Of a stretch of DNA of 64,000 bases, positions 19,982 to 61,618 are shown piece after piece (within the stretch, counting starts at the first letter, position 1; every line of letters starts with the position of its first letter). This DNA is from Escherichia coli. Its GTDB lineage: Bacteria; Pseudomonadota; Gammaproteobacteria; Enterobacterales; Enterobacteriaceae. The position numbers and the translations under genes were made by a program. The notes below the pieces were generated by a model. That model was not told where the DNA came from and ran no database searches. It worked only from the letters and a program-made list of their open reading frames with translations. The stretch lies in assembly GCF_041886205.1 (NCBI RefSeq), contig NZ_CP169029.1, one strand, 5' to 3'.

Positions 19982-20245
19982 ATATTGCCGGATAAATTAA
20001 ACGCCTCTGTCAGAAATGATGGGGGCGTTTTTATTTTGCGAGCAGCATTCCTGATTTTAAACGTGAAAATAGCAGAGGGAATCAGCAGGCATAGAATGGC
20101 GTCGGGTGCTTGAGGCTGTCTGGCGTTGAGCATTCGCGAGGTTCCAGATGGACAAAAGCCCCAGGCGATATTTCTATCAACCTGAGGCCAGCGTTCGAAC
20201 CTAAGCAATTCGGATGTTAGTCTCTTCTTTGCAGGGAGGCAAGAC

Positions 20246-20398
20246 ATGCTGACAAAATATGCCCTTGTGGCAATCATCGTACTGTGTTGTACAGTACTGG
20301 GATTCACGCTGATGGTAGGCGACTCGTTGTGTGAGTTGAGTATCAGAGAACGTGGTATGGAGTTTAAGGCAGTTCTCGCTTACGAATCGAAGAAGTAG
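20246..20398 (+). CDS. Hok/Gef-family type I toxin-like small membrane peptide (50 aa)
   Basis: Unlisted small [53 protein letters not shown]: single TM helix followed by the Hok signature ...SLCE(L/I)..R.....E.A...AYES.K; GGAGG RBS upstream (gcagggaggcaagacATG). Confidence 0.7.
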
Positions 20399-40374: not shown

Positions 40375-42453
40375 TTAAATCAATGCCGATTTATCAATTC
40401 CCAGTCGCTTCATCCGTGACAGCAGGGTCGTGCGTTTCAGCCCCAGACGTTGCGCAGCGCCTTTAGGCCCGGCAACCACGCCGTTAGTTTCTTTCAGCAC
40501 GCGAACAATCAACTGATATTCATCTTCGCCCTCCTGAGCGACAACCGTTGCGGCAGGCGGCGTTTCAGGCTCCGGTAAAGCAATATCTGGCAATGACAGC
40601 TGCAGCACGTTGCCGCGTGTTAGCAATACCGCGCGCTCAATGACGTTTTCCAGTTCGCGTACGTTACCCGGCCACTCCATATTGCTCAAGGTGCGCAACG
40701 TCTCGGCAGGAATGCTGTCGATATTGCGCCCCAGACGACGGGCAATTTTGAAGGTAAAGGCTTTCGCCAGCAGCGGAATATCTTCCGGACGCTCGCGTAG
40801 TGGCGGCAGGTGGATCGGGAATACGTTCAGGCGGTAATAGAGATCGCTACGGAACTCTCGGTCGGCGACCATTTTTTTCAGATCGCGGTTAGTCGCGGCG
40901 ATTAGACGCACGTCCGTCTGAATGATTTTGTTGCTGCCGAGACGTTCAAACTCCTGTTCCTGTAATACACGCAGCAACTTCGGCTGTAACTCCAGTGGCA
41001 TATCGCCCACTTCATCGAGGAACAGGGAGCTTTTATCCGCCAGTTCAAAACGACCGATACGCTGGGCGCTGGCACCGGTAAAAGCCCCACGCTCATGACC
41101 AAACAGATCGCTCTCCAGCAATCCGGCAGGCATCGCCGCGCAGTTCATTTTGACCATGCGGCGATTATTACGCCCACTGAGATTATGGATCGCGCGGGCA
41201 ATCAGCTCTTTACCCGTGCCAGTTTCACCGAGGATCAGCACGGTACTGTCACTTTGCGCCACCATTTCAACTTGTTTAAGCACGCTGTACATGGCTTCGC
41301 TGCGGCCAATAATCTCGCCAAATTCACTATCAACATTGTTGAGCTGCTCGGTCAGGGCGAGGTTTTCATCAACCAGCCGTTCTTTCAGACGATGGATTTC
41401 CTGATAGGCGAGGGCGTTATCGACAGCGATTGCCACACGTTCGGCAATCTGGCGCAGTAAATTCAGATTGGTAGTGGTAAACACTTTCTCTTCGCATTGC
41501 GCCAGTTTCAGCACGCCCAGCATGGTGTCGCCAGACATCAGCGGTAACAGGCACAAGGTTTGAATCTGGTTGCCCCAGGTGTCGAACAACATGCGTTCAT
41601 AGGGGGCTAAATCGTCCCGCTCGTGGAGATTGATCAGCAGCATCTCTTTACTTTTGAACACGCGTTCGGTGAGGGTTCCGGCTTCATCGACTTCGCTCTG
41701 TTCGTGGGCGGGATGTTGTTTATCAAGATAGTGAGTGGAGTAGATGTTGAGTTTGTTTTTACGGTGGCTGCGTAAGACAATGCTGATATCGTCAATGTCG
41801 AAATAGTAATGGATTTCTTTGGCGACTTCGCTGACCAGTTCGTCCATATCCAGGCGGGAAAGCACCGCGTTGGTGATGGCGACCAGGATGCGGAAGTTAT
41901 CGCGTTCCCGGCATAACAACTCATAGTCGACATTGTTAACGACGCGACTCTGGATTTGTTCGGTGACGACAGAAACGATCTGCGTAAATGTTTGCAGACG
42001 ATTGAACTCTTTTTCGCTCCAGGGGCGATCGTCATAACGAATAAATTCACAGCCACCAAAAATATGCCCTTCCGCCGCCAGTGGCATCAGGCAATAGTGA
42101 CCAAATTTTGGGTATAGCCCACCTGCGGCCAGCTGCGGCCAGGTTTCACAAAATTCTTCGTAACTGCAATGCAGCGTATCAGGGCGCGACAAAATGCTGC
42201 GTACCGGACCGTGTGCCAGAACAGTTTCGTCTTCATATTTAATGGGGGTGTCTTTTTCACGCGATGCGTAATAAGACGCACGTTGAGTCTGCGCTTGCCA
42301 CAACACAATAGCCGCGTTGTCGGCGAGCGCAGAACGCTTTACCAGTTGCGAAAGAGCCTCACACAGCGAGGCCAGATCGGGCTGCTGCAATAGTGTCCGA
42401 GTGATGTCGAACAACCCTTGCTGTCCGAGATCACTCATCGGTGTATATGACAT
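40375..42453 (-). CDS. fhlA: Formate hydrogenlyase transcriptional activator (sigma-54-dependent)
   Basis: Start at internal Met (MSYTPMSDLGQQGLFDITRTLLQQ...), 692 aa; GAF domains, AAA+ sigma-54 interaction domain (GETGTGKE, GAFTGA) and C-terminal HTH. Confidence 0.95.
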   Translation of the reverse strand: MSYTPMSDLGQQGLFDITRTLLQQPDLASLCEALSQLVKRSALADNAAIVLWQAQTQRASYYASREKDTPIKYEDETVLAHGPVRSILSRPDTLHCSYEEFCETWPQLAAGGLYPKFGHYCLMPLAAEGHIFGGCEFIRYDDRPWSEKEFNRLQTFTQIVSVVTEQIQSRVVNNVDYELLCRERDNFRILVAITNAVLSRLDMDELVSEVAKEIHYYFDIDDISIVLRSHRKNKLNIYSTHYLDKQHPAHEQSEVDEAGTLTERVFKSKEMLLINLHERDDLAPYERMLFDTWGNQIQTLCLLPLMSGDTMLGVLKLAQCEEKVFTTTNLNLLRQIAERVAIAVDNALAYQEIHRLKERLVDENLALTEQLNNVDSEFGEIIGRSEAMYSVLKQVEMVAQSDSTVLILGETGTGKELIARAIHNLSGRNNRRMVKMNCAAMPAGLLESDLFGHERGAFTGASAQRIGRFELADKSSLFLDEVGDMPLELQPKLLRVLQEQEFERLGSNKIIQTDVRLIAATNRDLKKMVADREFRSDLYYRLNVFPIHLPPLRERPEDIPLLAKAFTFKIARRLGRNIDSIPAETLRTLSNMEWPGNVRELENVIERAVLLTRGNVLQLSLPDIALPEPETPPAATVVAQEGEDEYQLIVRVLKETNGVVAGPKGAAQRLGLKRTTLLSRMKRLGIDKSALI

Positions 42454-46191: not shown

Positions 46192-46224
46192 TGTTGATTA
46201 TCTCTGCGGTGAATAATGTCGATG

Positions 46225-46262
46225 ATGTCGAAATGACACGTCGACACGGCGACGAAATTCAT
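46225..46262. promoter_or_regulatory. Candidate FhlA upstream activating sequence (hypA-hycA intergenic)
   Basis: atgtcgaaatgacacgtcgacacggcgacgaaattcat: TGTCGAAATGACA-type half-sites in inverted arrangement; the same motif recurs at 46877..46923. Confidence 0.5.
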
Positions 46263-46817: not shown

Positions 46818-46876
46818 GCTGAGGCTTTGCCCGTTTTGCAGGCGTTACGCCTGTCTGGGGATGGGCGTGTCGATGA

Positions 46877-46923
46877 GTGTCGAAAATGACATTTCATCGG
46901 CATGTTTTCGTCAAAAATGACAA
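46877..46923. promoter_or_regulatory. Candidate FhlA-binding repeat motif in hycA-hycB spacer
   Basis: gtgtcgaaaatgacatttcatcggcatgttttcgtcaaaaatgacaa: two copies of (C)GAAAATGACA-type motif similar to that at 46225..46262. Confidence 0.5.
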
Positions 46924-46941
46924 TCACCTGAGGAATGCCTG

Positions 46942-53755: not shown

Positions 53756-54218
53756 CGTTTTACTCTGTGTTGGCAATAGCATGATGGGCGATGATGGCGC
53801 AGGTCCGCTGCTGGCGGAAAAGTGCGCCGCCGCGCCGAAAGGTAACTGGGTGGTGATTGATGGCGGTAGTGCACCGGAAAACGACATCGTCGCCATCCGT
53901 GAACTGCGCCCTACGCGGTTACTGATTGTTGACGCTACTGATATGGGGCTAAACCCCGGCGAAATCCGCATCATCGACCCGGATGATATCGCCGAGATGT
54001 TTATGATGACTACCCATAACATGCCGCTGAACTATCTTATCGACCAGTTGAAAGAAGACATTGGCGAAGTGATTTTCCTCGGCATCCAGCCGGATATCGT
54101 CGGCTTTTACTACCCGATGACTCAGCCGATTAAAGATGCGGTAGAAACCGTTTATCAACGACTGGAAGGCTGGGAAGGGAATGGCGGCTTCGCGCAGTTA
54201 GCGGTGGAAGAAGAGTAG
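53748..54218 (+). CDS. hycI: Hydrogenase 3 maturation endopeptidase
   Basis: 156-aa [28 protein letters not shown]...; HybD/HycI protease signature. Confidence 0.94.
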   Translation: MTDVLLCVGNSMMGDDGAGPLLAEKCAAAPKGNWVVIDGGSAPENDIVAIRELRPTRLLIVDATDMGLNPGEIRIIDPDDIAEMFMMTTHNMPLNYLIDQLKEDIGEVIFLGIQPDIVGFYYPMTQPIKDAVETVYQRLEGWEGNGGFAQLAVEEE

Positions 54219-54288
54219 TTTTTCAATAAGGAATCAGGACAGGGATGTTCTTGATGGGGTGAACCAGCTCTGATGCCAAATGCTAAAT

Positions 54289-54376
54289 TGCCCGATGCGC
54301 TGCGCTTATCGGGCTTTCCTGGTTCGTGCGACACGTAGGCCGGATAAGGCGTTCACGCCGCATCCGGCACGGTTAC

Positions 54377-54378
<2 letters not shown>
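54289..54378. repeat. REP elements in hycI-ascB spacer
   Basis: tgcccgatgcgctgcgcttatcgggc and gtaggccggataaggcgttcacgccgcatccggca: REP-type palindromes. Confidence 0.75.
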
Positions 54379-57267
<2,889 letters not shown>

Positions 57268-57526
57268 CGGATTTTATCCTGTTATCAGTAGGGTAGATGT
57301 AGTTGTTATCAGTCGACGTGACGGAAAAATGCCGATGCTGAAACGGAATTAAGAAACCGGTTTCACAAAATCATGAATAGTTGTCACTAAATAAGCAAGA
57401 GAGTTAATTGTTCATTTTTTATATTTGTGAAACCGGTCACCTGAATATTTTTCCCGCCGATTGCGCAAGGACAATCGGCAAACGGTGCAGTACACTGCGT
57501 TGATTGCGTGTAAAGGGATGAAAATG

Positions 57527-58537
57527 ATGACGACGATGCTGGAAGTGGCGAAGCGCGCCGGGGTTTCAAAAGCGACCGTTTCCCGCGTGCTTTCAGGTAA
57601 TGGCTACGTCAGCCAGGAGACTAAAGATCGCGTGTTTCAGGCGGTAGAAGAGAGCGGTTACCGCCCAAACTTGCTGGCGCGTAATCTGTCGGCGAAGAGT
57701 ACTCAGACGCTGGGGCTGGTAGTGACCAACACGCTTTACCACGGCATTTATTTTAGTGAATTACTGTTTCATGCCGCGCGAATGGCGGAAGAGAAAGGGC
57801 GGCAGTTGCTATTGGCAGATGGTAAACACAGCGCCGAAGAAGAGCGCCAGGCGATTCAGTATCTGCTGGATCTGCGCTGCGACGCGATCATGATTTATCC
57901 GCGCTTTTTAAGCGTGGATGAAATTGATGACATCATTGACGCGCACAGTCAGCCGATAATGGTGCTTAATCGCCGCCTGCGCAAAAATAGCAGCCATAGC
58001 GTCTGGTGCGATCATAAACAGACCAGCTTTAACGCCGTGGCAGAGTTGATAAACGCCGGGCATCAGGAGATTGCTTTCCTTACCGGCTCGATGGATTCCC
58101 CCACCAGCATTGAACGTCTTGCCGGGTATAAAGACGCGCTGTCGCAGCATGGTATTGCGCTCAATGAAAAACTTATCGCTAACGGTAAATGGACGCCCGC
58201 CAGCGGGGCCGAAGGGGTAGAAACGTTGCTCGAACGTGGGGCTAAATTTAGCGCGTTAGTTGCCAGTAACGACGATATGGCGATAGGTGCGATGAAAGCG
58301 TTGCACGAGCGCGGCGTAGCGGTGCCAGAGCAGGTGTCAGTTATCGGATTCGATGATATCGCAATTGCCCCCTATATCGTTCCGGCGCTCTCCAGCGTAA
58401 AAATTCCGGTGACTGAGATGATTCAGGAAATTATTGGACGGCTGATTTTTATGCTCGATGGCGGGGATTTCTCACCGCCGAAAACCTTCAGCGGAAAACT
58501 GATCCGCCGCGACTCACTCATTGCTCTTTCGCGATAA
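57527..58537 (+). CDS. ascG: LacI-family repressor of the asc operon
   Basis: Start chosen at MTTMLEVAKRAGVSKATVSRVLSG... (336 aa); in-frame ATGs at 57518 and 57524 are alternative starts; LacI HTH and periplasmic-binding-like fold; reading frame intact. Confidence 0.93.
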   Translation: MTTMLEVAKRAGVSKATVSRVLSGNGYVSQETKDRVFQAVEESGYRPNLLARNLSAKSTQTLGLVVTNTLYHGIYFSELLFHAARMAEEKGRQLLLADGKHSAEEERQAIQYLLDLRCDAIMIYPRFLSVDEIDDIIDAHSQPIMVLNRRLRKNSSHSVWCDHKQTSFNAVAELINAGHQEIAFLTGSMDSPTSIERLAGYKDALSQHGIALNEKLIANGKWTPASGAEGVETLLERGAKFSALVASNDDMAIGAMKALHERGVAVPEQVSVIGFDDIAIAPYIVPALSSVKIPVTEMIQEIIGRLIFMLDGGDFSPPKTFSGKLIRRDSLIALSR

Positions 58538-58550
58538 ACATTGTCATCAC

Positions 58551-58587
58551 ATGTCATCGTCACTAGTGTCGATGACATCGTTTTTCC
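58551..58587 (+). terminator. Rho-independent terminator downstream of ascG
   Basis: atgtcatcg-tcactagtgt-cgatgacat hairpin followed by cgtttttcc. Confidence 0.7.
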
Positions 58588-58685
58588 TGCATTACAGAAA
58601 TTAATTTCCTTAAATAACAGCAAATTAAAAACTGGCATGATTTGTGAATGTATCGGCGCATTAACTGTCATTGCTGGAGAATTTG

Positions 58686-59213
58686 ATGAACCGTTTCATC
58701 ATTGCTGACGCGAGTAAATGTATTGGTTGCCGTACCTGTGAAGTGGCGTGCGTGGTTTCTCATCAGGAAAATCAGGACTGTGCATCGCTGACCCCGGAAA
58801 CCTTTTTACCGCGAATCCATGTCATTAAAGGTGTGAACATTTCCACGGCGACAGTCTGCCGTCAGTGTGAAGATGCACCGTGCGCTAACGTCTGCCCGAA
58901 TGGTGCTATCAGCCGTGATAAAGGGTTTGTTCATGTGATGCAGGAACGTTGCATTGGTTGCAAAACCTGCGTGGTGGCTTGCCCGTATGGCGCGATGGAA
59001 GTGGTGGTACGTCCGGTGATTCGCAACAGCGGCGCGGGGCTGAATGTACGGGCTGACAAAGCTGAAGCCAATAAATGCGACCTGTGCAACCATCGCGAAG
59101 ACGGCCCGGCGTGTATGGCGGCTTGCCCGACCCATGCGCTGATTTGTGTCGATCGTAATAAACTTGAACAACTGAGCGCAGAAAAACGTCGCCGTACGGC
59201 GCTGATGTTCTAA
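58686..59213 (+). CDS. hydN: Electron transport protein HydN (4Fe-4S ferredoxin-type)
   Basis: Start at ATG 58686 (MNRFIIADASKCIGCRTCEVACV...), 175 aa, with GGAGA RBS; multiple CxxCxxCxxxCP motifs. Confidence 0.94.
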   Translation: MNRFIIADASKCIGCRTCEVACVVSHQENQDCASLTPETFLPRIHVIKGVNISTATVCRQCEDAPCANVCPNGAISRDKGFVHVMQERCIGCKTCVVACPYGAMEVVVRPVIRNSGAGLNVRADKAEANKCDLCNHREDGPACMAACPTHALICVDRNKLEQLSAEKRRRTALMF

Positions 59214-59365
59214 AAATCTTATAGAACTGTTCTGGCATCAAAGGAATTCCCGGAAATATTCGTAGAATACGGAGCTGGCGGTATCGCCGACCTGAGACTG
59301 CCGGATACGACGCAGTCGTGTCCGGCAGGGCGGGTTACGCAATTCATGATGGCGGGAATAACTCA

Positions 59366-61618
59366 ATGGCAAAAAACACATCTTGCGGTGTCCAACTGCG
59401 TATTCGAGGCAAAGTGCAGGGCGTCGGTTTTCGTCCGTTTGTCTGGCAGCTGGCACAGCAATTAAATCTTCACGGCGATGTCTGTAATGACGGCGATGGC
59501 GTAGAAGTCCGGCTGCTGGAAGACCCGGAAACGTTTCTTGTTCAATTGCATCAGCACTGCCCGCCGCTGGCGCGTATTGATAGCGTCGAGCGTGAGCCGT
59601 TTATCTGGTCACAACTGCCCACCGAGTTCACTATACGCCAGAGCACAGGCGGCACCATGAATACGCAAATTGTTCCCGATGCCGCTACTTGCCCTGCCTG
59701 TCTTGCCGAAATGAATACCCCAGGCGAGCGGCGTTATCGTTATCCGTTTATCAACTGTACTCACTGTGGTCCGCGTTTCACCATTATTCGCGCCATGCCT
59801 TACGACCGCCCGTTTACCGTAATGGCGGCGTTTCCGCTGTGTCCAGCCTGTGATAAAGAGTACCGCGACCCGCTCGATCGTCGCTTCCACGCCCAGCCGG
59901 TGGCCTGCCCGGAGTGTGGCCCGCATCTTGAATGGGTAAGTCATGGTGAACATGCAGAACAAGAGGCGGCATTACAGGCAGCTATCGCACAGTTAAAAAT
60001 GGGCAACATTGTCGCCATCAAAGGGATTGGCGGATTTCATCTTGCCTGCGATGCACGTAACAGTAACGCGGTGGCGACACTTCGGGCGCGCAAACATCGC
60101 CCGGCGAAACCGCTGGCGGTCATGTTGCCAGTGGCTGACGGTTTACCAGACGCTGCGCGCCAGTTGCTTACCACGCCCGCCGCGCCGATTGTGCTGGTGG
60201 ATAAAAAATACGTTCCTGAGCTTTGTGATGATATCGCCCCTGGCCTTAACGAAGTCGGCGTGATGTTGCCTGCGAACCCGCTCCAGCATTTGCTGTTACA
60301 GGAACTGCAATGCCCGCTGGTGATGACCTCCGGCAACCTGAGCGGTAAACCACCGGCTATCAGCAACGAACAGGCGCTGGCGGATTTGCAGGGCATTGCC
60401 GACGGATTCTTGATACATAACCGCGACATCGTGCAGCGGATGGATGATTCGGTGGTGCGCGAAAGCGGCGAAATGCTGCGCCGTTCGCGGGGGTATGTAC
60501 CGGATGCACTGGCTTTGCCTCCGGGCTTTAAAAATGTGCCGCCTGTGCTGTGTCTCGGCGCAGATCTGAAAAACACCTTCTGCCTGGTGCGCGGTGAACA
60601 AGCAGTGTTGAGTCAGCATCTGGGCGATTTAAGTGACGATGGCATCCAGATGCAGTGGCGCGAAGCGTTACGCCTGATGCAAAACATCTACGATTTCACT
60701 CCGCAATACATTGTGCATGACGTGCATCCGGGCTATGTCTCCAGCCAGTGGGCGAGCGAAATGAATCTGCCGACGCAAACGGTGCTGCATCATCATGCCC
60801 ACGCAGCGGCGTGTCTGGCAGAACATCAGTGGCCGCTGGATGGCGGTGATGTCATTGCTTTGACGCTCGATGGTATCGGTATGGGGGAGAACGGCGCTTT
60901 GTGGGGCGGCGAGTGCCTGCGGGTGAACTATCGCGAATGTGAGCACCTGGGCGGCTTGCCCGCGGTGGCGCTTCCGGGCGGCGATCTGTCTGCAAAACAG
61001 CCGTGGCGAAATTTGCTGGCGCAGTGCCTGCGCTTTGTGCCGGAGTGGCAGAATTACTCTGAAACGGCACGTGTGCAACAGCAAAACTGGAGCGTGCTGG
61101 CGCGGGCCATTGAGCGTGGAATTAACGCGCCGCTGGCGTCGTCGTGTGGGCGTTTGTTCGATGCAGTGGCGGCGGCACTGGGCTGTGCGCCAGCCACGTT
61201 AAGTTATGAAGGTGAAGCGGCTTGTGCTCTGGAGGCGCTCGCAGCCTCATGCCACGGAGTGACGCATACGGTGACAATGCCGCTGGTGGACAATCAACTG
61301 GATCTCGCCACTTTCTGGCAGCAGTGGCTGAACTGGCAGGCACCGGTTAATCAACGCGCGTGGGCGTTTCATGATGCGCTGGCGCAGGGTTTTGCCGCGT
61401 TGATGCGTGAGCAGGCCACGATGCGTGGTATCACTACGCTGGTATTTAGCGGTGGGGTTATTCATAACCGTTTGCTGCGTGCACGTCTGGCGCATTATCT
61501 CGCTGATTTCACATTGCTCTTTCCACAGAGTTTACCGGCGGGTGATGGCGGTTTGTCTCTGGGGCAGGGGGTTATTGCTGCGGCGCGTTGGTTAGCGGGT
61601 GAAGTCCAGAACGGATAA
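59366..61618 (+). CDS. hypF: [NiFe]-hydrogenase maturation carbamoyltransferase HypF
   Basis: Start at internal ATG 59366 ([27 protein letters not shown]...), 750 aa; acylphosphatase domain, two zinc fingers (CPACLAEM...CTHCGPRF), YrdC and Kae1-like domains. Confidence 0.95.

Follow-up and report, generated by a model that had tools for sequence, protein, structure and literature searches.

The asc locus of Escherichia coli, in which ascG is divergent from ascFB and all three genes lie between hycI and hydN, raises two questions. Does an intact set of asc genes mean that β-glucosides can be used, and is the palindrome that stands directly behind ascG the terminator of this repressor gene? Both were addressed by computational analysis of a stretch of 64,000 nucleotides of E. 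coli DNA, referred to below as the window, whose relevant features are collected in Table 1. The best explanation as a whole, to which we assign a probability of roughly 0.8, is that asc is present in its standard silenced form, as in K-12, and that the palindrome is an enhancer of hydN.

Table 1. Features of the asc-hydN region and fhlA, in window coordinates
Feature	Position	Strand	Basis or remark
fhlA, sigma-54 enhancer-binding activator	40375..42453	-	NCBIfam NF011958, 1548 bits over 1-692/692
Two REP-like palindromes between convergent hycI and ascB	54290..54368		sequence reading
ascB, 6-phospho-β-glucosidase (GH1), 474 aa, intact	54377..55801	-	NCBIfam NF007356, Pfam PF00232
ascF, PTS EIIBC for cellobiose/arbutin/salicin, 485 aa, intact	55810..57267	-	NCBIfam NF007311
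Divergent ascFB/ascG control region, 259 bp	57268..57526		aligned to MG1655
Predicted AscG operator box AGAAACCGGTTTCA	57352..57365		13/14 matches to TGAAACCGGTTTCA; identical in K-12
CRP-like box TGTGA-N6-TCACC, enclosing the second AscG box	57426..57441		sequence reading
Second predicted AscG box, TGAAACCGGTCACC	57428-57441		identical in K-12
ascG, LacI/GalR-family repressor, 336 aa, intact	57527..58537	+	Pfam LacI HTH and Peripla_BP domains
Extra half-site-like repeat TGTCATCAC, directly 5' of the palindrome	58542..58550		sequence reading
28-bp palindrome, ATGTCATCGTCACT/AGTGTCGATGACAT	58551..58578		13/14 positions complementary; the hairpin of the original prediction
T5 run	58581..58585	+	after the palindrome, CG between
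IHF-like A/T-rich element TAACAGCAAATTA, between putative enhancer and promoter	58615..58627		alignment A2
Sigma-54 -24/-12 promoter of hydN-hypF, CTGGCATGATTTGTGAA	58632..58648	+	exact match to OS26
hydN, first gene of the FhlA/formate-regulated hydN-hypF operon	58686..59213	+	NCBIfam NF007658, 383 bits

The asc genes and their K-12 counterparts

Comparison with MG1655, codon by codon, revealed that ascG, ascF and ascB (compared with b2714, b2715 and b2716) have the same lengths in both genomes, with no frameshift and no stop. The proteins are 98.5-98.8% identical, with 4 amino acid differences in AscG (98.8% identity; A206S, M233T, T284I and P334L), 6 in AscF and 7 in AscB; dN/dS of the three genes is 0.08-0.20, and the intergenic parts of the locus differ by 3 SNPs. 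The ascG frame begins at the same ATG and spans the same 1011 nt as b2714, and it carries neither IS186 nor a frameshift, which is the configuration of the repressed state. Its product contains the LacI-type HTH (PF00356, residues 3-48, 76 bits) and the effector domain Peripla_BP_3/1 (PF13377/PF00532, residues 60-330). The original prediction, that all three genes are intact and that ascG is full length with an undamaged HTH, is borne out by these data, and the comparison of ascG with K-12, which it had proposed as a check, gave equal length and four substitutions.

The profile searches cover the whole length of AscB (1085 bits over 1-474/474 of NF007356) and of AscF (1025 bits over 1-485/485 of the equivalog NF007311). 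The NEI and ENG catalytic motifs are found in AscB; AscF contains the Pfam domains PTS_EIIB and PTS_EIIC only, with no EIIA domain, and has its Cys motif, CMTRLR, at residue 28. NCBIfam holds no AscG-specific model, the best matches being GalR and GalS (221 and 217 bits, with cut-offs of 557 and 555), so the identity of AscG rests on its similarity to b2714 and on RefSeq annotation; in RefSeq genomes with a 100%-identical locus, the genes are annotated ascB, ascF, ascG and hydN. The two palindromes between hycI and ascB, which resemble the E. coli REP consensus, are the probable 3' boundary of the ascFB transcript. A scan of the asc-hydN region with Rfam gathering thresholds gave no matches.

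The intact locus had been set against K-12, in which asc is described as cryptic, with the implication that β-glucoside use in this strain would depend on inducer recognition by AscG. This contrast does not hold: the MG1655 genes are also intact and of equal lengths, and the control regions are identical but for SNPs at two positions, 57405 and 57464, both outside the AscG boxes. The asc operon of K-12 was termed cryptic (Hall and Xu, 1992, as cited in PMC4403981 and PMC3505978) due to an intact repressor without a known inducer (PMC3505978, PMC4488073), and its activation occurs through IS186 insertion (PMC3505978, PMC4488073). Since the silence of K-12 is caused by the intact repressor, an intact ascG predicts the same silent phenotype and not a functional inducible system. 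The window thus contains an ordinary E. coli ascG/ascFB locus, in the standard wild-type configuration that is called cryptic in K-12, and by analogy with that strain the Asc phenotype is predicted to be silent on arbutin, salicin and cellobiose alike. The asc proteins themselves would be functional, as judged solely by their intact reading frames.

How this silence would be achieved can be proposed from the control region. The boxes in Table 1 resemble the AscG consensus TGAAACCGGTTTCA, which is said to originate from the work of Ishida et al. in 2009; in a literature search, this consensus string returned only unrelated 'AscG/ASCG' papers. The second box would overlap a CRP site, which reportedly agrees with the same 2009 study. 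That ascFB carries two AscG sites was described in the literature (PMC3505978). AscG, a dimeric repressor of LacI/GalR type, would bind both TGAAACCGGTTTCA-like boxes, including the one overlapping the CRP-like box, and ascFB would be kept off. If ascFB were expressed, AscF, which would need EIIA in trans, would import and phosphorylate β-glucosides, and AscB would then hydrolyse the 6-phospho-β-glucoside.

Distribution of asc and the allele of this lineage

ascG and hydN are colinear in 4696 of 5426 complete E. coli genomes (~87%), and asc is absent from ~729. Insertions of IS elements in ascG were considered as a common state of natural isolates and rejected, as all 52 sampled full-length matches are one uninterrupted piece and only 4 extra 'places' occur among the 5426 records. 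AscG orthologues of 335-337 aa were found at 21 further loci in other genera of Enterobacteriaceae. Such wide conservation, together with purifying selection, fits reports of substrates such as cellobionic acid.

These data bear on the question whether the asc system of this strain is truly inducible, its AscG allele (with the four substitutions given above) recognising a natural β-glucoside. All four differences are located in or after the effector domain, and at residue 233 threonine is the majority in other genera, so that it is M233 of K-12 that is derived; moreover, low dN/dS and cross-genus conservation imply use in nature, and unmutated K-12 requires ascB for growth on cellobionic acid (PMC4403981). 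However, the operators and the control region are essentially those of K-12, positions 206, 284 and 334 are variable among orthologues, no inducer of AscG is known (PMC3505978), and the sequence offers nothing that would functionally distinguish this AscG allele. True inducibility is therefore highly unlikely.

Could the intact frames, conversely, hide a partial loss of function, with private substitutions at invariant positions impairing the transporter or the glucosidase? Three substitutions are private to the lineage: G52D in AscF (G in all 17 other species and K-12), H140Y in AscB (H in 12 of 13 other species and K-12) and R149C in AscB (R in all 13 other species and K-12). Alleles at least 99% identical to the set in the window are present in only 21-30 of ~5400 E. 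coli genomes. Against impairment stand the intact catalytic motifs and the low dN/dS, and K-12 has derived residues of its own (S7, D27 and F440), yet its AscB is functional. The positions equivalent to the AscB substitutions are not known to be conserved across GH1 enzymes generally. Partial loss is unlikely, if somewhat less so than inducibility, and the K-12-like silenced form is retained as the preferred reading of asc.

The palindrome behind ascG

The original prediction attributed to ascG a terminator of its own, a clean hairpin. The hairpin is real and located as described; the word 'terminator' is an interpretation and not an observation. Three properties speak for it: the palindrome begins 14 nt past the ascG stop codon, its RNA folds at -13.6 kcal/mol (z = -3.4; 1 of 200 shuffles folds as well) with UUUUU beginning 2 nt past the stem, and a barrier that keeps ascG read-through out of hydN would be plausible. 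In the perfect stem, G-C pairs make up only 4 of 9. A generic promoter/terminator scan of 54000-59400 did not call the palindrome, as its criteria allow loops of at most 8 nt and the perfect stem of 9 bp encloses 10; it yielded no useful promoter either and was uninformative. The supplement text of the eLife 2021 Term-seq paper, as searched, contains no entry for an ascG or hydN 3' end.

The comparison of genomes with and without ascG points to another role. Alignment A2, of 39 sequences from ~20 genera, shows the palindrome upstream of hydN throughout, and it is present without ascG in Salmonella arizonae and diarizonae, E. albertii, Mangrovibacter, Cedecea and Buttiauxella. In all 8 sampled E. 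coli that lack asc, homology resumes at window position 58532, which means that hydN keeps the entire ascG-hydN spacer. At both asc-less loci that were inspected, SaT040 (in which the palindrome is perfect, 14/14) and S87, transcription of the gene next upstream runs away from hydN, leaving nothing there to terminate. The palindrome is thus kept whether or not ascG is present, which shows it to be part of the sigma-54 promoter downstream.

The pattern of conservation within alignment A2 is of the same kind. Columns without any variation are concentrated in the palindrome, in the -24/-12 element and in the Shine-Dalgarno sequence, while the stretches between these blocks, T-run included, are not conserved and the flanks of the palindrome have diverged. 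The palindrome arms are invariant rather than covarying, 7 of 12 paired positions being the same across all 39 sequences, and the position of the central T-T mismatch is unpaired in 17 of them. The palindrome centre is separated from the promoter GG by 68-70 nt (24 sequences) or by 58-61 nt (15 sequences), and no intermediate distance occurs; the two classes are one helical turn apart. In the window the distance from the centre to the GG of CTGGCATGATTTGTGAA is 69 nt.

The repeat TGTCATCAC has an element of TGTCA/CGTCA/CGACA type at its position in most genera of the alignment, and it may act as an additional half-site.

A symmetric change of TGTCAT to TGACAT with ATGACA to ATGTCA, by which complementarity is kept, distinguishes Cedecea and Buttiauxella; it is as compatible with an RNA stem as with a dyad bound by protein, and to this extent counts against an enhancer-only reading. 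So does the resemblance of the hairpin with T5 in E. coli to a moderate intrinsic terminator.

The T-run follows the upstream gene poorly. At least 5 T in the 10 nt after the palindrome were counted in 10 of 39 aligned sequences, 6 of which have no ascG upstream; among the rows with ascG upstream this applies only to three Escherichia-type rows and Pseudescherichia vulneris, most having 0-4. The pairing covariation and the U-tract conserved alongside the upstream gene that mark an intrinsic terminator were not found. It is thus very improbable that the palindrome and T-run exist mainly as the Rho-independent terminator of ascG: the palindrome is kept where neither ascG nor any co-directional gene is upstream, it is phased to a sigma-54 promoter, and the generic scan and the Term-seq supplement text gave it no support. 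Judged by its conservation, the palindrome is primarily an element of the hydN promoter and not primarily an ascG terminator, and termination of ascG transcripts there, in Escherichia, may have at best a local secondary role.

Such a role could still be combined with the enhancer, the 28 bp acting as an FhlA enhancer on DNA and as an intrinsic terminator in the lineages with a T-run (Escherichia, Salmonella and Mangrovibacter), where the gene terminated would be whichever reads in, i.e., ascG in E. coli or hycI in Salmonella and Mangrovibacter. Behind the palindrome, the Escherichia-type, Salmonella and Mangrovibacter rows carry T-runs of 5-8, and Pseudescherichia and both Cedecea have an interrupted 6 of 10 T. 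In most of these lineages the palindrome is preceded by a gene in the same direction, which is ascG for E. coli and Pseudescherichia and hycI for Salmonella, Mangrovibacter and C. neteri. The Salmonella version of the palindrome folds at -12.8 kcal/mol (z = -3.4). On the other hand, ST131-type E. coli retain the T-run though their upstream gene points away, most genera that carry ascG upstream lack the T-run, and the Term-seq supplement text lists no such 3' ends. Dual use is a tentative possibility, with odds clearly against it. Slightly more doubtful is the extended proposal of one 28-bp element working in two molecules, the DNA enhancer of hydN-hypF and an RNA terminator. If it were true, transcription coming from the sugar regulon would end exactly at the binding site of the activator and might transiently disturb it, by which expression of the β-glucoside repressor would be coupled to the control of hydrogenase maturation genes.

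The hydN-hypF promoter and FhlA

The reading of the palindrome as a hydN enhancer is consistent with what surrounds it. The promoter CTGGCATGATTTGTGAA is exactly the ChIP-seq site OS26 of Bonocora et al., 2015 (PMC4591121), is homologous to the Salmonella hydN sigma-54 site TGGCACGATTCGTGTATA (PMC3844500), and is accompanied by an RpoN gSELEX peak between hydN and ascG (PMC8743547). Its TGG and TG are invariant in alignment A2, and HydN is 100% identical to that of K-12. The control of hydN-hypF by FhlA and formate was described previously (PMC11841067, PMC3844500). Between palindrome and promoter, the element TAACAGCAAATTA has CA...TAA columns that are nearly invariant in alignment A2, and Enterobacter-type sequences carry at this place AATCAATGCATTA, a perfect WATCAANNNNTTR, which suggests IHF as its binder.

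Likeness to other FhlA-controlled regions comes from short shared sequences. The window contains 6 copies of the motif TGTCGATGA, where 0.58 would be expected, and 3 of them are in the hycA-hypA, hycA-hycB and ascG-hydN spacers; the palindrome shares TGTCGATGA/GTGTCGATGA with the hyc/hyp regulatory regions. These hyc/hyp regions are presumably those where FhlA sites lie. A core of CGTCA-N4-TGWCG type is common to the palindrome and the upstream region of K-12 fdhF, the pattern (YGTCR-N4-TGWCR) having been defined post hoc, after the sites had been seen.

Other patterns were less informative. The 16-mer FhlA consensus CATTTCGTACGAAATG (PMC4987338), applied as a simple match count over the window, placed neither the hydN palindrome nor the hycA-hypA region near the top; only one hycA-hycB site reaches 11/16, level with 10 unrelated sites, and the consensus was dropped as a discriminator. 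TGTCGNNNTGACA with 1 mismatch was not enriched in the window (6 matches against 4.1 expected).

The palindrome lies within the ~70-150 bp upstream that are usual for sigma-54 enhancers, is conserved independently of its neighbour, is phased to the promoter and resembles FhlA-controlled regions. It is best read as a putative FhlA upstream activating sequence, an enhancer of the hydN-hypF sigma-54 promoter centred at about -94, and FhlA, which is encoded in the same window, most probably binds it. In the proposed order of control elements, the enhancer would be followed by the IHF-like A/T element and then by the -24/-12 promoter, with formate-responsive FhlA binding to the palindrome; in Escherichia, the T5 run may additionally let the palindrome RNA stop ascG transcripts.

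What the locus teaches

The biology described here is already known, as asc is in its textbook state and the formate regulon is known to include hydN-hypF. What changes is the interpretation of two labels. A palindrome with a T-run just past a stop codon need not be the terminator of that gene, and 'cryptic' does not mean broken: the asc genes of K-12 are intact and their silence comes from an intact repressor.

Comparison with known systems

The closest relative of the locus is the cryptic asc operon of K-12, which has the same genes, order, orientation, lengths and neighbours, hycI and hydN; the differences, amino acid substitutions and intergenic SNPs, are allelic only. The bgl operon (bglGFB), also called cryptic in K-12 (PMC4488073, PMC2646131), likewise combines a β-glucoside PTS permease with a GH1 phospho-β-glucosidase, both paralogous to those of asc. 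It is controlled by H-NS silencing and the BglG antiterminator, whereas asc has a LacI/GalR repressor and a permease without EIIA; the scores of AscF against Bgl-type EIIABC models, 442 and 276 bits, do not reach the cut-offs. With GalR, GalS and other LacI/GalR repressors AscG shares the two-domain architecture and the arrangement of two operators flanking or overlapping the promoter. AscG is neither GalR nor GalS, its scores being far below both cut-offs, and it differs from them in the operator half-site and in having no known inducer.

The hydN promoter, in turn, resembles the FhlA-dependent promoters of the formate regulon (hyc, hyp, fdhF and hydN-hypF). These have a -24/-12 promoter, as at the published hydN site, and an upstream dyad, which in the window is ~70 nt from the promoter, and at hydN an A/T-rich IHF-like element lies between the two. 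The hyc/hyp spacers and K-12 fdhF have TGTCGATGA and CGTCA/TGTCG...TGACA/TGWCG repeats in common with the hydN element of the window. In contrast to their looser tandem arrangement, the hydN element consists of a single long palindrome, near-perfect over its 28 bp, and it adjoins the stop codon of ascG, a gene unrelated to it, where the T-run of Escherichia gives it the look of a terminator.

The palindrome downstream of ascG

The right-hand part of the window, as delineated by ORF listing and family scans, corresponds to the hyc – asc – hydN/hypF – norVW region of E. coli, with both hydN and hypF lying downstream of ascG. In a megablast search of positions 54300–58700 against 5,426 complete E. 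coli genomes, the 100%-identical loci carry the annotation ascB/ascF/ascG/hydN.

Coordinates of the features discussed in the text
Feature	Position	Strand	Description
fhlA	40375-42453	minus	family scan
REP-like palindrome	54290-54314		GCCCGATGCGCTGCGCTTATCGGGC; between convergent hycI and ascB
REP-like palindrome	54338-54368		GGCCGGATAAGGCGTTCACGCCGCATCCGGC; between convergent hycI and ascB
ascB	54377-55801	minus	474 aa; NF007356, 1085 bits, full model
ascF	55810-57267	minus	485 aa; NF007311, 1025 bits, 1-485/485
AscG-type box 1	57352-57365		AGAAACCGGTTTCA; identical in K-12
AscG-type box 2	57428-57441		TGAAACCGGTCACC; identical in K-12
ascG	57527-58537	plus	336 aa; LacI HTH + periplasmic-binding-like effector domain
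Palindrome/hairpin	58551-58578		arms ATGTCATCGTCACT / AGTGTCGATGACAT; 13/14 positions complementary
Sigma-54 promoter of hydN	58632-58648	plus	CTGGCATGATTTGTGAA; exact match to ChIP-seq site OS26
hydN	58686-59213	plus	NF007658; downstream of ascG

The original prediction assigned to ascG a hairpin terminator of its own. A hairpin and a T-run are indeed present there: the palindrome starts 14 nt past the ascG stop, its RNA fold reaches -13.6 kcal/mol (z = -3.4), and after it come CG and a TTTTT run (58581-58585). The word terminator, however, is an interpretation, and the element is better explained as part of the hydN promoter. The consensus terminator scan did not return the palindrome after ascG.

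Four lines of evidence link the palindrome to hydN and not to ascG: asc-less genomes, other genera, type of constraint and phasing. About 729 complete E. coli genomes are without asc, a deletion already reported in ST131 (PMC3917908), and in all eight of those sampled the homology to the window starts again at 58532, shortly ahead of the ascG stop. In SaT040 and S87, the two asc-less genomes whose loci were examined, hycI and hydN are separated by another three-gene cassette and the gene nearest upstream of hydN is transcribed away from it, so that nothing needs terminating; both keep the whole ascG-hydN spacer, and the SaT040 palindrome is perfect (14/14).

For other genera, about 45 hydN orthologues were collected by a pattern scan, with one genome per species, and then by tblastn, and 39 distinct upstream regions were aligned (alignment A2). 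The palindrome, TGTCATCGTCAC-N4-GTGWCGATGACA, is found there with any kind of upstream neighbour, be it ascG, hycI (Salmonella arizonae and diarizonae, Mangrovibacter, Cedecea neteri) or another gene (E. albertii, Buttiauxella, Leclercia). The columns that never change are concentrated in four places: the palindrome, the TGG...TG of the -24/-12 element, the Shine-Dalgarno sequence and an A/T-rich CA...TTAA element that would fit IHF. The stretch 3′ of the palindrome is unconserved. Only 10 of the 39 rows have at least five T within 10 nt 3′ of the palindrome: four are Escherichia-type, two come from Salmonella and two from Mangrovibacter, and the remaining two are Cedecea neteri and Cedecea sulfonylureivorans. 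Pseudescherichia vulneris also has 6/10 T, and most genera with ascG upstream have 0-4. The hairpin with its T5 could plausibly act as a moderate terminator in Escherichia, as could its counterparts in Salmonella and Mangrovibacter, toward which hycI is transcribed, but the T-run is scarce in genera with ascG upstream and the palindrome is kept where no gene reads into it. No ascG or hydN 3′ end is listed in the searched supplement text of a published Term-seq study.

Since 7 of the 12 stem pairs never vary across the 39 sequences and the central position is unpaired in 17, the constraint is the sequence conservation expected of a protein site, not structure-preserving covariation. Cedecea and Buttiauxella show the sole symmetric change, TGTCAT/ATGACA to TGACAT/ATGTCA, which fits the protein-site and RNA-stem readings alike. 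In 24 of the 39 sequences the palindrome is centred 68-70 nt from the promoter GG and in the other 15 it is 58-61 nt away, with no intermediates; these two classes differ by one helical turn.

A putative FhlA enhancer of hydN-hypF

The spacer between ascG and hydN is 148 bp long and has one SNP relative to K-12. Bonocora et al. (PMC4591121) attributed site OS26 to hydN, CTGGCATGATTTGTGAA is homologous to the Salmonella hydN sigma-54 site (PMC3844500), and an RpoN gSELEX peak labelled 'hydN < ascG' covers the promoter site (PMC8743547); the FhlA/formate regulon includes hydN-hypF (PMC11841067; PMC3844500). The palindrome is centred 69 nt upstream of the -24 GG, at about -94 from the expected start. 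Sigma-54 enhancers are expected at about such a distance from the promoter.

Six copies of the 9-mer TGTCGATGA are present in the 64-kb window, where 0.58 would be expected. One of them lies in the hycA-hypA spacer (46217), one in the hycA-hycB spacer (46868) and one in the hydN palindrome (58567); the first two reportedly correspond to the FhlA sites of hyc and hyp (Schlensog 1994; Hopper 1994). Both spacers (46214-46246 and 46866-46925) contain clustered TGTCG/TGACA repeats, e.g., TGTCGATGATGTCGAAATGACACGTCGACA. A CGTCA-N4-TGWCG core, a pattern defined after the sites were seen, is also present upstream of K-12 fdhF. A review (PMC4987338) quotes a 16-mer FhlA consensus; a simple match count with it put neither the hycA-hypA region nor the hydN palindrome near the top, and one hycA-hycB site scored 11/16, tied with 10 unrelated sites, so the count does not discriminate. 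Also visible in the hycA-hypA/hycA-hycB spacers is the divergent pair of sigma-54 promoters, TTGGCACAAAAAATGCT and its partner.

The supposed terminator is best explained as a conserved putative FhlA/sigma-54 enhancer of hydN-hypF. The palindrome would act as double-stranded DNA bound by FhlA, an IHF bend would form between it and the promoter, and the -24/-12 promoter would then drive hydN-hypF. Judged from sequence, this is most likely a classical sigma-54 architecture, the onset 14 nt past the ascG stop being incidental. Because the hairpin with its T5 is a plausible moderate terminator in Escherichia, Salmonella and Mangrovibacter, one palindrome might serve both as DNA enhancer and as RNA terminator; we consider such dual use rather unlikely, and it would be the one mildly novel possibility at this locus.

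Other features of the region

The cassette that replaces ascBFG between hycI and hydN is present in ~13% of complete E. coli genomes and in E. albertii. It encodes a hypothetical protein, an HTH-domain protein and a further hypothetical protein (SaT040, L003 2568-3727; L004; E. albertii, L012), its junction is the ascG stop codon, and the haplotype is common to ST131-type E. coli and E. albertii. In SaT040, an ST131 genome, hypF is annotated as frameshifted (pseudogene; L003 4835-7086), which could be a sequencing artefact or a true loss of hydrogenase maturation. The REP-like palindromes (54290-54368) are probable 3′ boundaries of the hyc and ascFB transcripts. The only Rfam gathering-level match in the whole window is a full-length sok antitoxin RNA (RF01794, 108 bits, 20104-20261, plus strand), which indicates a chromosomal hok/sok-type toxin-antitoxin locus.

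The asc genes and their repressed state

The asc genes proved intact, as had been proposed: in a codon-by-codon comparison ascG, ascF and ascB have exactly the lengths of K-12 MG1655, with no frameshift or premature stop. AscG differs from K-12 by four substitutions (A206S, M233T, T284I, P334L), AscF by six and AscB by seven; the CMTRLR phosphorylation-site motif of AscF and the NEI/ENG catalytic motifs of AscB are kept. The model matched by AscF is titled 'PTS cellobiose/arbutin/salicin transporter subunit IIBC'. The contrast implied with a cryptic K-12 did not hold, as the K-12 asc genes are likewise all intact.

The asc configuration of the window is the norm within E. coli. The ascG-spacer-hydN order is colinear in 4,696/5,426 complete genomes, and 52 of 52 full-length matches sampled among them form a single uninterrupted piece. 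In Citrobacter, Enterobacter, Klebsiella oxytoca, Kluyvera, Kosakonia, Lelliottia, Trabulsiella, Pseudescherichia and others, the ascG-ascFB block is likewise flanked by hycI and hydN, and AscG orthologues of 335-337 aa were found at 21 further non-E. coli loci. The genes show no decay: dN/dS against K-12 is 0.08 for ascG, 0.20 for ascF and 0.08 for ascB. Growth on cellobionic acid needs ascB in unmutated K-12, BL21 and other strains, therefore asc is not cryptic for every substrate (PMC4403981), and the conservation across genera together with the low dN/dS fits this requirement.

A caveat on the term 'functional' comes from the lineage-private substitutions AscF G52D (~57112-57114) and AscB H140Y and R149C (codons 140/149, ~55355-55384), at positions that vary little or not at all among 13-17 other species and K-12; genomes at least 99% identical to this asc allele set number only 21-30. 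K-12 AscB has derived residues of its own (S7, D27, F440). In Kluyvera genomosp. 3 (L106), Citrobacter youngae ATCC 29220 (L087) and Citrobacter sp. Cu233 (L091), ascG or ascB is reduced to fragments or frameshifted pieces beside hydN, with palindrome and promoter intact; this indicates that several lineages have lost asc, or let it decay, independently.

Only two positions of the 259-bp control region between ascF and ascG differ from K-12 (57405 and 57464), and box 2 is embedded in a CRP-like TGTGA-N6-TCACC. Ishida et al. reportedly described in 2009 the AscG consensus TGAAACC-GGTTTCA, along with the CRP overlap. Because ascG is intact, the K-12 genes are intact too and both boxes are identical, the intact repressor predicts the same silent Asc phenotype as in K-12. 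In K-12, silence is ascribed to the intact repressor, for which no inducer has been reported, and insertion of IS186 activates the operon (PMC3505978; PMC4488073). Cellobiose use stays poor even after inactivation of the asc repressor (PMC4488073). None of the findings is new in kind: the window carries the familiar asc system, organised as in K-12 and in its ordinary repressed state.
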